Shown here piece by piece: positions 1 to 8,117 of a stretch of 8,117 bases of DNA (position 1 is its first letter; each line of letters begins with the position of its first letter). The DNA comes from a virus (Monodnaviria; Loebvirae; Hofneiviricota; Faserviricetes; Tubulavirales). The position numbers and the translations under genes were made by a program. The stretch lies in the IMG/VR virus record IMGVR_UViG_2703718788_000001; one strand, given 5' to 3'. Below the pieces are notes generated by a model. The model saw only the letters and a list, made by a program, of their open reading frames with translations. It searched no databases and was not told the origin of the DNA.

Positions 1-32
1 TGCGCATAATGTGACACGCGTTATGTTGAAAA
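1..32. other. dif-like XerC/XerD recombination site (att): XerC-arm-like TGCGCATAA + TGT, then a XerD-arm-like TTATGTTGAAA at 21-31 after an 11-nt spacer
   Basis: 1-12 TGCGCATAATGT matches, from memory, positions 3-14 of E. coli dif (GGTGCGCATAATGTATATTATGTTAAAT); 21-31 TTATGTTGAAA resembles the dif XerD arm TTATGTTAAAT (9/11); the same 12-mer recurs at the right end. Confidence 0.6.
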
Positions 33-68
33 GGCCGCTGCGATACTTTCCACCGCAGCGGCCTTTTT
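29..68. terminator. Perfect hairpin (10-bp stem 33-42 / 54-63, 11-nt loop) flanked by AAAA upstream and TTTTT downstream; candidate bidirectional rho-independent terminator or packaging/origin hairpin
   Basis: GGCCGCTGCG at 33-42 is the exact reverse complement of CGCAGCGGCC at 54-63; A-run 29-32, T-run 64-68. Confidence 0.55.
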
Positions 69-97
69 ACACATAACGTCATTGTGCGCACTGAATC

Positions 98-253
98 TTA
101 AAAGGAGTCTGTGCGCCTGTTCATTTTGTCGTGTATGGTCATCACCAACGGAAGAACAAGCGTTATCAGGCCGAACATCGTCATGCCTGTAATGCTATCC
201 ACAACAAAATGCTTTATCAGCAGGTCAAGAATTAAGTCACTGGTTGTCTGCAT
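98..253 (-). CDS. Hypothetical small hydrophobic protein (51 aa, MQTTSDLILDLLIKHFVVDSITGMTMFGLITLVLPLVMTIHDKMNRRTDSF), below the ORF-track cutoff
   Basis: Hand translation of the minus strand from ATG (complement of 251-253) to TAA (complement of 98-100); predicted TM segment; weak AAGAAG Shine-Dalgarno-like sequence; same strand as the 60-aa regulator and ends just before the hairpin at 33-63. Confidence 0.25.
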   Translation of the reverse strand: MQTTSDLILDLLIKHFVVDSITGMTMFGLITLVLPLVMTIHDKMNRRTDSF

Positions 254-295
254 ATTGCTTCTTAGCAATCTTCGTATCTATAGGTAACTACGATG

Positions 296-478
296 TTATT
301 TTTTTTGGTTTCTTTGGTGGATCATGTCTTGTTTTGCGTCGTTTAAGTAGTTTTTTATCATAAAGTGTACAACTTCCGACCATGTAACTATTTGCCCTGT
401 TTTTTGGCTTATCTCAAGGGCTATTCTAGTAATATCCAGATATGTTGATTCTGTAATTGCTATTGCCTTTCTTTTCAT
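296..478 (-). CDS. Putative small DNA-binding transcriptional regulator (60 aa), divergent from the replication gene
   Basis: ORF with GGAG about 8 nt upstream of its ATG on the minus strand; basic N- and C-termini; divergent from gII across an intergenic region full of GTTAACA-type repeats, an arrangement comparable to the CTXphi rstR/rstA pair. No recognisable family by eye. Confidence 0.5.
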   Translation of the reverse strand: MKRKAIAITESTYLDITRIALEISQKTGQIVTWSEVVHFMIKNYLNDAKQDMIHQRNQKK

Positions 479-592
479 TCGCCCATCTCCATTGTTAACA
501 GTTTAACAAGACAACATTTTCACTTGACCCATAAAAATTATGAGTGTTAACCTGTTAACACTTTAACACCAGTGCGTTTTTTATTCGTTTTT
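479..592. promoter_or_regulatory. Divergent promoter/operator region: two copies of a 16-bp element TGTTAACA(G/C)TTTAACA (493-508, 553-568) plus an extra TGTTAAC (545-551); -35-like TTGACC at 524-529
   Basis: Repeats read directly from the sequence; each copy contains the palindrome GTTAAC; one copy abuts the regulator start and the other the gII start. Confidence 0.5.
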
Positions 593-5123: not shown

Positions 5124-5486
5124 ATGGTTGTTTTTATACAGTTTATTTATTCTTTTGTTCTTATTATTTTTAGGAGATTACTTCCTTTTCTCAGGAATAA
5201 ATTCCCTTCTGTTTTTTCTTATACAGGTACGTTAACGTATCTTTTTATGTCGATTTCTTTGGCTGTAAGTTTTATCGTTGCAGCCAATGCTGTTATTGAT
5301 ACGGTTTCTTCTTCTGCGGTTATGAACAGATATCTTATTGTTGCGTTCAGTTATTTACCTCATAACTTTACATTTTGTGCGAATCTTGTTCTTGCGGCTG
5401 ATTTTATTTCTTTTCTTTTCCATTCAAAGGATCGTATTTATCGTTACATTCGATTATTTATATCAGGAAAAGTTTCAGGAGTATAA
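5124..5486 (+). CDS. Minor coat protein (pVI-like, 120 aa, multi-TM hydrophobic)
   Basis: Starts 3 nt after the pIII stop with GAGG upstream; size and hydrophobicity similar to M13 pVI (112 aa); position between gIII and gI. Confidence 0.7.
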   Translation: MVVFIQFIYSFVLIIFRRLLPFLRNKFPSVFSYTGTLTYLFMSISLAVSFIVAANAVIDTVSSSAVMNRYLIVAFSYLPHNFTFCANLVLAADFISFLFHSKDRIYRYIRLFISGKVSGV

Positions 5487-5489
5487 TTT

Positions 5490-6701
5490 ATGCCCGTTAT
5501 TACAGGGAATCTGGGTCAGGGTAAAGGCATTGTGGCGGCTTATTTTGCCTCGCTTTATTATCGCCGTGGGTTGCGGGTTGCTGCAAATTACCCGCTTAAC
5601 ACTGAGTGCATGTGTTCCGGTTCGGATAATCCGGTTACGGTTATTCCTGCCATGCCGCGAATTGAAGACCTGGAACTTCTCGGGCGTGGGTGTCCTGAAA
5701 ATGAAAAAACACGCTTCGGGGCGTTATTTCTTGATGAGTGTGCGACATGGCTGAATACCCGTGGTTTTGCCCGTAAGGACAGATTACCGTTAATCGACTG
5801 GCTGATACATTCCCGTAAGCTGGGCTGGGATGTTTATCTGATTGCACAGCATGAAGATATGATTGATTCCCAGATAATTAAGGCGATGGGGGCTAAAATT
5901 ATTCGCTGCCGCCGTCTTGATGAATTACGTGTTCCTGTGATTACGCCGCTGATGGAATTATTCAGACCGGGAAAAACGGGGATTGCATCGGGGAAAAGGG
6001 GGATTATTCCTCATTATGTTACCGCCAGTTCGTTTCTTTATGATGGCACCACTCATGCTGCCCGACGTCCTGTTGATAAGGTTGTTATTAAGGCCGCTGA
6101 TTATTACAACGTTTATGACACCAATTTTATTTTTTCTGACGGGATGGAACTGCTTAATGGTCGTTTTGTGGATATGCGCGCCGTTTATTCCGTTTTGCCA
6201 GGACGAATGCTTATGACCATGAATCAGTTACCTGAACAATCCGATAAAAAAGCTGCTCCACAGAAAAAACCATGGGGAAAGTTGATTGCCTTTCTTTTTC
6301 TTGTCGTGGTGATGATTGCCATTGCCCGACATTATTTATCCGGTGGTCAGGATGTTCATGTGGCTGCGTCTCCTGTGGTGCAGAACAGCGTGCCTCCCGT
6401 GCCTCATTTGCCTGTCTCAACGGTTGCCCCTGAACCTGAGCAGAAAAAGCCGGATGAACTTCCGGTATCAAAGGAGTGGCGTCTTGCCGGATATGTCAGG
6501 GGAGTAAGCCCGTATTTTGTGTTACTGGGGCCGTCGGGTCAGGTACGGCGTTACTTCTCGTTCCAGTCATGGAACGGCGGCGCGACTGAACTGAATGTTG
6601 AAGGTGAACGGGTGACGTTCTGGTCAGGCCCGTCGGGAACGGCATCAAAGGGTGATGTACTGACTGACAAAATGCTTTCGTTTGATGTGAAGAGTAAATA
6701 A
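5490..6701 (+). CDS. Phage assembly protein pI (Zot-family P-loop NTPase)
   Basis: RBS CAGGAG; Walker A-like GNLGQGKG near the N-terminus; the segment [41 protein letters not shown] closely resembles M13 pI [42 protein letters not shown] (recalled from memory); single TM segment [15 protein letters not shown]. Confidence 0.95.
6207..6701 (+). CDS. Possible pXI-like internal in-frame translation product of gI (restart at Met240)
   Basis: In-frame ATG cluster (6207, 6213, 6219) preceded by AGGA, just upstream of the TM segment; to my recollection this corresponds positionally to the M13 pXI start at Met241 of pI. Confidence 0.35.
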   Translation: MLMTMNQLPEQSDKKAAPQKKPWGKLIAFLFLVVVMIAIARHYLSGGQDVHVAASPVVQNSVPPVPHLPVSTVAPEPEQKKPDELPVSKEWRLAGYVRGVSPYFVLLGPSGQVRRYFSFQSWNGGATELNVEGERVTFWSGPSGTASKGDVLTDKMLSFDVKSK

Positions 6702-6810
6702 GAGAGAGCCGCCACCGCTCGCCGCAGGTTTATGACCGAACGTAGTGAGCGAATAAACGAGGAAGCGGAAGAGAACGGAACAGACATAAGGCACTTACGC
6801 ACGGTATAAC

Positions 6811-8040
6811 ATGATGAGAATGACTAACTTACTGACAGCACTTGTTTTTCTGACTTCGGCATGTGTTCATGCCTCGTCTCCGGCATTTATTGTTGACCGC
6901 CTTCCACTGAACGCGGCAATACAGCTTGCACAGGAGGATGTGTTTGGACGGCAGTATGTGCTGCCACCGGAACTTGCCAGTGATACACGCCCGGTCACAC
7001 TGGATTTAAGTCTTGCAGGTGACCAGAAGACCCAGCGTGAGGAGTATGTACGCTGGCTCCGGCAGATGAATATTGCGGTGGAAACACGAAACGGCGTTGA
7101 CCATTACCGCTCGTTTAAACCCGTGGCTGCGCCGGAAAAAATGGTGTCATGGGTATATACGCCGCTACATCGATCGCCGTCCTATCTTGCCACGGTACTT
7201 TCGGGAACAACAGGGCGCTCATCGCAGGCATCTTCTGAGAGTACGTCCGGTACGTCCTCGGGGTCGTTATCCGGCAGTGTATCGTCATCGTCAGGTTCAT
7301 TTTTATCGGGTGAGGGTGATTCACTGGTTTTCAGGGGGACACGTTCAGAGCTGGCGCGTCTTAAGGAGCTGGTCCCGCTGATTGATGTTCCGGCGCAGGG
7401 TGTTGTGGTGACGGGGTATATTTATGAGGTACAGACAGGGCGTTCTGAAGGTTCGGGGCTGGCACTGGCCGCAAAACTGTTATCAGGTCGTTTTGGGGTC
7501 AGCGTGGGTTCCTCGTCATCGATGGGTAATTATATTTCGTTCAGCTCCGGTACGCTGAATGCGATGTATGAGCTGTTCAGTACGGATAACCGCTTTAAGG
7601 TGGTATCAGCACCTCAGTTACGCATGGATTCAGGCAAGGAGGCGACGTTCTCCGTTGGTGAACAGGTTCCGGTTCTTGGCAGCGTGTCCTATGAGGATGG
7701 TAAAGCCGTTCAGTCGGTGACGTATCGTGATTCGGGGGTGATATTCAAAGTGAAGCCGGTTATCACATCGTCACGCATCAGTCTGAACGTCAATCAGCAG
7801 TTAAGTAACTTTGTCAAAACGGATACGGGCGTGAATGATTCACCAACGTTGCTCAAGCGTGAGGTGGATACGTCGCTGACCCTGAAAGATGGCGATATTG
7901 TGTTGCTGGGTGGTCTGGCAGAAAACAAGGATTCGCAGGCCAGCACAGGATTATCATTTCTGCCAAAAAGCTGGAGCCAGAAATCTGACGAGAAGAGCCG
8001 CACGGATATGGTGATCCTGTTGCAGGTGAAAAAAGTCTGA
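6811..8040 (+). CDS. Phage export secretin pIV (outer-membrane secretin family)
   Basis: N-terminal signal peptide; C-terminal secretin-domain segments resembling M13 pIV by eye (for example [26 protein letters not shown] versus KILSVPRILTLSGQKGSISVGQNVPF, and [29 protein letters not shown] versus LRDGQTLLLGGLTDYKNTSQDSGVPFLSK). Confidence 0.95.
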
Positions 8041-8105
8041 GTTCTGTCTGGTGTGCGTCCATTTGGTCTCACAGGAGCGGTTCAATTCACCCACTACAAC
8101 GTCAG

Positions 8106-8117
8106 TGCGCATAATGT
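8106..8117. repeat. Right-end copy of the 12-nt direct repeat TGCGCATAATGT (dif-like XerC arm; attR or circular junction)
   Basis: Exact identity with positions 1-12 of the window. Confidence 0.7.

Follow-up and report, generated by a model that had tools for sequence, protein, structure and literature searches.

A Predicted Temperate Filamentous Phage of Escherichia coli at the Chromosomal dif Site, with a CTXphi-Type Attachment Hairpin and a Plasmid-Like ssi Element

Introduction

In the CTXphi-type class of filamentous phages integrating at dif, the substrate of integration is the + single-stranded DNA (ssDNA), XerC performs the first strand exchange, host replication completes the event, which is irreversible, and new genomes are produced by rolling-circle replication from tandem prophages (PMC4246890). 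Ypfphi and CUS-1 have been listed as relatives of this class (PMC4246890; PMC4266046). Core proteins of UPphi are about 70% identical in amino acids (aa) to those of IKe, and the modularity of this phage group has already been noted (PMC7307601). Ypfphi-like phages show >98.7% nucleotide identity across species. Here, these systems are compared with the IMG/VR virus record IMGVR_UViG_2703718788_000001, a stretch of 8,117 nucleotides (nt) which was analyzed as a whole and is hereafter called the window. It very probably consists of one complete and intact copy of a temperate filamentous phage of Escherichia coli, residing at the chromosomal dif site.

The lineage is already catalogued in IMG/VR as predicted, uncharacterised proviruses, and it is a fairly ordinary relative of the known integrating filamentous phages, without a close kinship to M13. 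An earlier note, made from the letters of the window, had called it a complete Ff-like inovirus. The note was right that a complete filamentous phage is present, but its label was imprecise and it missed the temperate integration at dif, the attP hairpin (8102-8117/1-98), the leftward gene at 296-478 and a single-strand initiation (ssi)-like element between gI and gIV.

Results

The Prophage Unit and Its Attachment Site

Comparison of the window's ends defines a genome unit of 8105 nt plus a repeated 12-nt core. This core, TGCGCATAATGT, is located at 1-12 and again at 8106-8117 (+ strand), covers a portion of the XerC arm of dif together with the central region's first 3 nt, and marks the boundary of the prophage unit. 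The unit carries nine co-oriented genes on the + strand, all intact in the window, and one convincing leftward open reading frame (ORF) near the window's start (296-478).

Between hipA and a ydeQRS-type fimbrial operon, that is, at the dif locus, E. coli 2015C-4136CT1 (NZ_CP027550) carries two units in tandem, with 99.9% identity to the window over 1-4640 and 100% over 5124-8040. A single copy of the 12-mer at the junction is common to both units. Tandem arrays are also found in Z1323 and CP039404. At attR, the phage right end runs into AGTGCGCATAATGTATATTATGTTAAAT, which differs from the E. coli dif by a single change in the XerC arm; we take this dif to be GGTGCGCATAA-TGTATA-TTATGTTAAAT, 27 of whose 28 positions are present there. 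At attL, the left end reads GATGCGCATAATGTGACACGCG. The window itself has no 28-nt dif, either exact or with 3 mismatches, because the window's ends interrupt it and the central regions of the phage's own sites are longer or different.

The end sequences and the unit junction indicate that the circular genome carries two dif-like sites. Site 1 (1-31, together with 8104-8117 in the circle or the junction; + strand) reads AGTGCGCATAA-TGTGACACGCG-TTATGTTGAAA, corresponding to the XerC arm, an 11-nt central region and the XerD arm. Site 2 (66-93, - strand) is inverted, lies 35 nt downstream of site 1 and reads AGTGCGCACAA-ATGACG-TTATGTGTAAA (11+6+11). The apex of the attP hairpin is a perfect 14-bp stem-loop (29-67, + strand), detected as an inverted repeat and by DNA folding. 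Its base is formed by the right-end XerC arm TCAGTGCGCATAATGT (8102-8117, + strand), which pairs with 80-94 and also supplies the XerC side of the dif regenerated at attR.

In + ssDNA the complete hairpin (8102-8117/1-98) has a folding energy of -40.2 kcal/mol, against -14.3 +/- 2.8 for shuffled sequences (z = -9.3), and it is the strongest ssDNA fold of the genome in a sliding fold. It pairs XerC arm with XerC arm and XerD arm with XerD arm, leaving an asymmetric, bulged central region (11 nt vs 6 nt). The stem is nearly invariant in 11 aligned E. coli elements, with compensatory changes at four basal pairs. Limited weight is given to this covariation, because most of the aligned sequences are attL contexts whose left arm is possibly host-derived.

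No integrase, transposase or other recombinase domain was found in any ORF of the window by Pfam and PHROG profile scans. With two inverted dif-like sites pairing in + ssDNA, a prophage at dif that regenerates dif on one side, tandem copies and no recombinase of its own, the attP anatomy is that of the CTXphi type of Xer-exploiting element, and from this architecture we infer the enzymology. By analogy with CTXphi, the host XerCD would recombine the incoming + ssDNA hairpin with dif through an XerC-catalysed single strand exchange, and host replication would then resolve the integration intermediate. Integration is proposed to be irreversible, since duplex DNA does not contain the hairpin. New + strands would arise by Rep-driven rolling-circle replication across the tandem copies, and would then be coated and extruded via pI and pIV.

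Copies of a 93-nt attP module (window 1-93), 85-98% identical, recur in numerous E. coli genomes, where they adjoin a wide variety of dif-linked elements. The module is also present on two large plasmids, NZ_CP182340 and NZ_CP078136, and the copy of the former lies beside a disrupted helix-turn-helix (HTH) gene and Tn3 remnants. Judging from this distribution, the hairpin module appears to behave as a mobile, shared attachment cassette.

Genes for the Coat, Adsorption, Assembly and Export

The virion and export module is complete and of the Ff/IKe type, with the coat protein, pIII, pVI, the pI ATPase and an own pIV secretin in canonical order, all on the + strand. Ratios of nonsynonymous to synonymous substitution (dN/dS) are given throughout for the window against three relatives that differ from it by 4-15% in nucleotide sequence.

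The gVII/gIX position is occupied by two small hydrophobic proteins. The first (46 aa, 3054-3194) is an annotated RefSeq coding sequence in relatives, has a dN/dS of 0.09 and gave no family match; the second (56 aa, 3187-3357) corresponds to RefSeq WP_000134225 in relatives and has a dN/dS of 0-0.15. The two ORFs are supported by their position, their hydrophobicity and their dN/dS (0.09-0.15 for both).

The major coat protein precursor (80 aa, 3383-3625) is composed of a signal peptide, an acidic N-terminus, a hydrophobic core and a basic C-terminus, and its sole family match is phrog_1646 "major coat protein" (1.8e-04). After the coat gene, an intrinsic terminator is located at 3641-3668 (+ strand); its hairpin (3641-3658) has a 7-bp stem with 6 GC pairs, and TTTTTTGCTT follows.

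The pIII-like adsorption protein (3685-5121) matches PF05357 (2.1e-07) and the structures 4eo1 (1.8e-10), 1fgp and 1tol in the PDB. It consists of a signal peptide, an N-terminal domain of no known type (aa ~20-113), an N1-like domain (aa 114-176), a Gly/Ser linker and a C-terminal anchor. The residues 114-176 match solved TolA-binding G3P N1 domains in the PDB search, and by tblastn the N1 domain is 41% identical to that of f1 over 66 aa. Entry would probably use TolA as co-receptor, after a primary receptor.

The linker is encoded by about 15 repeats of 27 nt (4218-4703; GGSSGGSTS). The number of repeats differs between otherwise near-identical copies, giving in-frame proteins of 478, 481, 528 and 537 aa. 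Repeat-number variation in pIII has likewise been described for IKe and UPphi (PMC7307601). In some complete genomes the array has been frameshifted or wrongly assembled, and a spurious 187-aa antisense ORF has been annotated there. In the E. coli search, "18-27 places per record" seemed to suggest multi-copy insertion; these hits are best explained by off-register matches of the 27-nt pIII repeats.

The pVI-like minor coat protein (5124-5486) matches phrog_1944 (5.4e-07) and has a dN/dS of 0.06 against the relative L028. In the relative from Z1323 (NZ_CP148423; 91% identical), the pIII C-terminus and pVI (3010-3368 and 11342-11700) show 52-70% aa identity, the rest being 95-100% identical. 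In Z1323 pVI is unannotated, and the region looks like a recombination hot spot or a local replacement.

The pI/Zot-family assembly ATPase (5490-6701) matches PF05707 (5.4e-09) and phrog_1675 "protein I of M13" (4.1e-51), and has a C-terminal hydrophobic segment at aa ~270-292. In tblastn searches it is 31.7% identical to pI of f1 over 221 aa (E 9e-33) and 34.5% identical to that of IKe (E 1e-36). The Walker A motif (residues 6-13, within window 5490-5540) reads GNLGQGKG, with Gly where f1 and IKe have Thr (GKT). GKG is kept in all enterobacterial prophage pI homologues examined, at 41-90% identity, and is thus a trait of the clade and not a recent lesion. The last gene encodes the pIV secretin, the virion export channel (6811-8040; PF00263 8e-25; phrog_1012 "protein IV of M13" 7.1e-117; PDB 7ofh, i.e., f1 pIV, 1.2e-14), which has 25% identity to f1 pIV (E 6e-17) and 25.6% to that of IKe (E 3e-14) by tblastn.

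The pI/Zot ATPase with its hydrophobic segment, the 80-aa coat precursor and the compact one-strand unit of 8105 nt (class range 5-12 kb) place the phage in the Inoviridae sensu lato. In this respect, the array of the earlier note (Rep, 2624-3049, two small membrane ORFs, coat, pIII-like, pVI-like, pI and pIV) is borne out at its coordinates, and family matches and gene order agree with its call of a complete inovirus with a full morphogenesis set including an own secretin. The terminator that it had seen after the signal-peptide coat gene is present as a stem followed by a T run. Its by-eye likeness of pI and pIV to M13 is statistically real, since the direct tblastn comparisons with f1 and IKe are significant. 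It had also named a lack of significant pI/Zot and pIV secretin matches for 5490-6701 and 6811-8040 as the result that would speak against it; both ORFs gave strong matches to these families.

Replication and Control Genes

The Rep protein (666 aa, 593-2593, + strand) is a rolling-circle initiator of the P2 gpA family, with matches to PF05840 (2.9e-48, spanning aa 213-464) and phrog_91 "nicking at origin of replication" (2.5e-129). RefSeq places its start at ATG 593, in an ORF which opens at GTG 572. Its translation includes the motifs H-W-N and Y-IVK-Y-ITK, and its dN/dS is 0.07-0.11. From the G2P family, a single match to PF23343 was obtained in Rep, at an E of 0.0085 and under the cut-off of that profile. 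A scan of the GTDB representative genomes with Rep peptides gave no match.

Inside the 3′ end of rep, the sliding DNA fold located a GC-rich imperfect hairpin (2503-2560, + strand), which is the second strongest ssDNA fold of the genome (-29.8 kcal/mol for the 90 nt from 2476). The origin of P2 lies inside its gene A, and the hairpin could be the + strand origin or another cis signal.

The gene V position is held by a 141-aa protein (2624-3049, + strand), which matches phrog_30648 (function unknown; 2.3e-97) and, at an E of 0.029, PF17426. Its relatives form 14 clusters only, all from E. coli or metagenomes, and its dN/dS is 0.13-0.32. It gave no match to the PF02303 gene V family, nor, by tblastn, to any deposited phage; equally, no tblastn match to gII or gV of f1 or IKe was found. 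The AlphaFold model has a mean confidence (pLDDT) of 52.6, and Foldseek and a PDB profile search returned no significant match, the top one being SSB, the protein of E. coli that binds single-stranded DNA, at E 0.26. An ssDNA-binding role may be proposed from its position alone.

The leftward gene (296-478, - strand; phrog_2503 5.6e-27) encodes a 60-aa protein which is a candidate repressor or regulator. Homologues fill the same position in related dif prophages, and none of 27 remote homologues carries an informative domain. The AlphaFold2 model (pLDDT 82.7) shows an extended N-terminus and two helices, a predicted shape compatible with a ribbon-helix-helix monomer, although ribbon-helix-helix is not claimed. 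Between this gene and rep, in the divergent control region (479-592), TGTTAAC-type palindromes at 493-508 and 545-560 flank a TTGACC hexamer. These repeats are candidate operators and promoters; a consensus promoter scan gave nothing in 479-592. The 60-aa protein would probably repress the rightward operon at the TGTTAAC repeats.

In the accessory slot by attP, the window holds only a doubtful ORF (98-268, - strand; putative 56 aa, TTG start, one hydrophobic segment). It is an ORF call without a family match; an ORF 80% identical to it exists in the Z1323 prophage, and it is unannotated in RefSeq relatives. In UTAK-18 (NZ_CP157132), the same slot contains a "TolA C-terminal domain-containing protein" (8315-8680, minus strand), which could be a pIII decoy acting in superinfection exclusion.

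These results bear on the possibility that the phage belongs to the Ff group (M13/f1/fd or IKe-like), i.e., that it is episomal, pilus-specific and non-integrating. The phage agrees with Ff and IKe in gene order, in having a terminator behind gVIII and in possessing pIV, and its pI, pIV and pIII N1 domain are significantly similar to those of f1 and IKe. On the contrary, the initiator is of the PF05840 and not of the pII/pX type, a PF02303 gene V was not found, identity to f1 and IKe is 25-35%, and no nucleotide match to any deposited phage exists by megablast. The large gIV-gII intergenic region of Ff with its origins is absent, and the interval between gIV and rep is filled by attP, the leftward ORFs and the operator-like repeats. 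The phage is not strictly episomal, being integrated in tandem at dif. Membership of the Ff group is thereby refuted and we consider it practically untenable. From the earlier note, "Ff-like" is consequently retained for the morphogenesis half and dropped for replication. Similarly, its gV-position protein and two tiny membrane proteins stand by position and dN/dS, and the small two also by hydrophobicity, but not by homology.

A Plasmid-Type ssi-Like Element between gI and gIV

The most interesting detail of this temperate phage, and its only feature on which experimental work might pay off, is placed in the 109-nt gap between gI and gIV. The sequence 6702-6805 matches about 2000 loci of small E. 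coli plasmids, which are of several replicon types, with 75-91% identity. It contains a structured ssi-like element of 54 nt (6715-6768, + strand), a candidate complementary-strand origin with a conserved 19-nt core and two covarying stems. The outer stem (CCGCT/AGCGG) pairs 6715-6719 with 6764-6768, and the inner one (GTTTAT/ATAAAC) pairs 6728-6733 with 6753-6758.

In a structure alignment of four phage lineages and four plasmids, 93% of the cells are paired, compensatory double changes occur at 6 of the 11 pairs, and none of 500 shuffles reaches the score. When the partners are slid, only 33-50% of the cells pair. The single-sequence DNA fold of 6695-6815 is not significant (z = 0.06), and the structure is visible only by comparative analysis. 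An Rfam scan of the window gave no match, even at E <= 1.

In a ColE1-like plasmid, the plus strand carries the phage-like segment at 7912-8001, shortly ahead of rop. The position of RNAI on the minus strand (7299-7405) puts RNAII on the plus strand, and the origin is near 7850. The segment therefore follows the origin by 60-150 nt and belongs to the RNAII-sense (displaced) strand. At that position, ColE1-type replicons carry ssiA, a PriA primosome assembly site for lagging-strand initiation (PMC3167613). The element of the phage is on its + (coding) strand, in the same orientation as the ColE1 ssiA. By its position, by the published account of ColE1-type replicons and by its alignment with the pBR322/pUC sequence, we take the plasmid segment to be ssiA.

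On its + strand, the phage has both the sequence and the hairpin expected of a phiX174-type primosome assembly site, for which the strand that is single-stranded in vivo is the relevant one. Because the element is on the + strand in the active orientation, its best reading is that of a complementary-strand origin, and synthesis of the complementary strand would probably begin there. All examined relatives of this phage have it; f1, IKe and the prophages of NC101 and UTAK-18 lack it. In f1 and IKe, the complementary-strand origin consists of RNA-polymerase-recognised hairpins after gIV (IKe annotation), whereas here the candidate lies between gI and gIV. We tentatively suggest, as something a little short of an even chance, that the lineage has swapped the RNA-polymerase-primed minus-strand origin of Ff and IKe for a ColE1-type ssiA, shared with thousands of small enterobacterial plasmids by descent or transfer. 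If true, the phage would parallel, in nature, the M13-delta-ori + ssi constructs of the laboratory, and would be a sign of ssi cassettes passing between filamentous phages and plasmids.

Distribution and Selection

Near-identical copies of the phage exist in hundreds of E. coli assemblies. The exact pI sequence was found in 397 blocks of a public assembly collection, and close pI clusters (identity of at least 87%) are all from E. coli or E. albertii. The earlier note had proposed to check the flanking genome context; in the six places where the upstream flank was included, the copies are all located between hipA and the fimbrial operon, i.e., at dif. Another IMG/VR record, UViG_2541047895_000001, starts and ends as the window does and, apart from the number of pIII repeats, is 99.9% identical to it.

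All nine + strand genes are under purifying selection. The dN/dS is 0.05-0.4 for every gene, structural genes included, with the exception of one short and highly diverged C-terminal segment of pIII (0.80 against the relative L026).

A sub-lineage in NZ_CP027550 (310720-330190, with the locus at 5019-14286) is 97% identical to window 596-8050 and is without the attP/regulator region. In it, an IS110-family transposase gene, frameshifted in that copy, abuts rep, and further matches are of the same kind. It is inserted between hcxB and ybiB/dinG, a non-dif locus, with a DUF2726 gene at the far end. Filamentous prophages of Neisseria use IS110/Piv-type transposases, and the arrangement is reminiscent of theirs.

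These data were also weighed for the possibility that the window is a domesticated or defective remnant which no longer makes virions. The making of particles is a prediction, the Walker A motif of pI is atypical, pIII or pVI is disrupted or unannotated in some genomes, and one lineage is fixed at the non-dif locus next to the frameshifted IS110 transposase. Against this, all nine genes are intact, with dN/dS well below 1 even in structural genes that would be useless to the host; tandem copies are present, the pIII repeat variants stay in frame, and the conservation of GKG speaks against a recent lesion. A remnant is unlikely, and the intact ORFs, the purifying selection and the abundance of near-identical copies agree with the view of the earlier note that the element is intact. 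Its wording "potentially productive" is plausible, given the tandem arrays and the intact genes.

Several points weigh against the reading as an intact temperate phage at dif. Virion, ssDNA and circular replicative form are predictions, the dependence on XerCD is argued by analogy, and the covariation of the hairpin rests mainly on one junction contrast, NC101 versus the window type. The Walker A motif of pI lacks the usual Ser/Thr, though this is clade-wide. Neither of the two small proteins is homologous to pVII/pIX, fold and PDB searches do not show the 141-aa protein to bind ssDNA, and the 60-aa protein has no recognised DNA-binding family, its fold, PDB and Pfam searches being not significant.

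Relation to Other dif Inoviruses

The best proteins of deposited phages reach about 35% identity, over the N-terminal 220-240 residues of pI only. Among other dif prophages of E. coli, an NC101-type one with a II/X-family Rep shares only pIV (44%). Prophage B of UTAK-18 has a Rep 91% and a 141-aa protein 85% identical to those of the window, but its pI is 40% and its pIV 48% identical. Since it joins the same gpA-type replication module to other morphogenesis proteins, this module is a cassette which recombines between morphogenesis modules.

UTAK-18 carries two different inoviruses in tandem at dif, one of them with this Rep module. In GCA_047973655.1, the present phage is directly followed by a different inovirus with a G2P_X_C Rep, a PF02303 gene V, DUF2523, Zot and a secretin. 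Such heterologous tandems at dif would allow module exchange and the production of hybrid phages.

The dif phages already described from enterobacteria, Ypfphi/CUS-1 and UPphi, were considered as groups to which the phage could belong, as a member or as a variant, and this was judged indirectly, from published descriptions. They have the same host group, integration at dif with inverted XerC/XerD sites, tandems, and leftward accessory or regulatory genes (PMC4266046; PMC7307601), and the 93-nt attP module is common to many other E. coli dif elements. However, near-identity of the core genes is not seen. UPphi is about 70% identical to IKe, whereas here pI is at 34.5% and pIV at 25.6%. Ypfphi-like phages are nearly identical across species, yet no Yersinia occurs among the named homologues of pI or the few relatives of the 141-aa protein. 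In addition, the two other types of dif prophage share with this phage only pIV, or Rep with a distant pI. Identity with one of these phages is therefore very unlikely, the exclusion of Ypfphi and CUS-1 being indirect.

Discussion

With the temperate phage of the window, the CTXphi-type class of filamentous phages integrating at dif gains an intact and defined member from E. coli. Three of its features are of use in comparative work. Its gpA-type replication module is one that passes between different morphogenesis modules; its attP hairpin is very compact and suits XerCD biochemistry in E. coli itself; and its plasmid-type ssi element may reveal the way in which such phages prime complementary-strand synthesis. 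No toxin or other cargo is obvious in the window, so that a direct medical relevance is not evident.

Comparison with Known Systems

Ff (M13/f1/fd) and IKe/I2-2, i.e., the genera Inovirus and Lineavirus, have the same order gVII/gIX-gVIII-terminator-gIII-gVI-gI-gIV as the present phage. Their pI, pIV and TolA-binding domain of pIII are homologous to those found here, and the number of Gly-rich linker repeats in pIII varies in both. The order of the pIII domains is like that of IKe, in which aa 90-245 align with aa 73-224 here. Similarity is nevertheless limited to pI, pIV and one domain of pIII, with 25-35% identity in pI and pIV. The phage differs further in being temperate, in its initiator and gV-position protein, in the ssi-like element between gI and gIV, and in the GKG instead of GKT of pI.

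The initiator has the PF05840 domain of the P2 gene A protein and the phiX174 A protein (superfamily I HUH endonucleases), together with their two-tyrosine motif Y-x3-Y-x2-K (YIVKYITK). In contrast to them, its metal motif is H-W-N and not H-U-H, and the genome which carries it is that of an inovirus.

The candidate complementary-strand origin is 75-91% similar, along about 60-100 nt, to the ssiA (n′-pas) of ColE1/pMB1, and it shares the two-stem fold and the orientation of that site. Unlike the plasmid site, it lies between two morphogenesis genes; its dependence on PriA is predicted from this likeness.

Integration is most similar to that of the CTXphi-type integrative mobile elements exploiting Xer (IMEX; CTXphi, RS1), which also have no integrase, inverted dif-like sites, a dif regenerated at attR, tandems and a leftward regulator next to rep. 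The hairpin is more compact here, with an 11-nt loop and ~98 nt overall versus the ~150 nt quoted for CTXphi. CTXphi uses a host secretin, whereas the present phage has its own; it also has no toxin genes, a gpA-type Rep, and a putative 60-aa two-helix regulator without a recognised HTH family. Finally, the other inoviruses at the dif of E. coli (NC101-type, the UTAK-18 types, UPphi and Ypfphi/CUS-1) share with it the attachment site, an attP hairpin at 85-98% and the same architecture.

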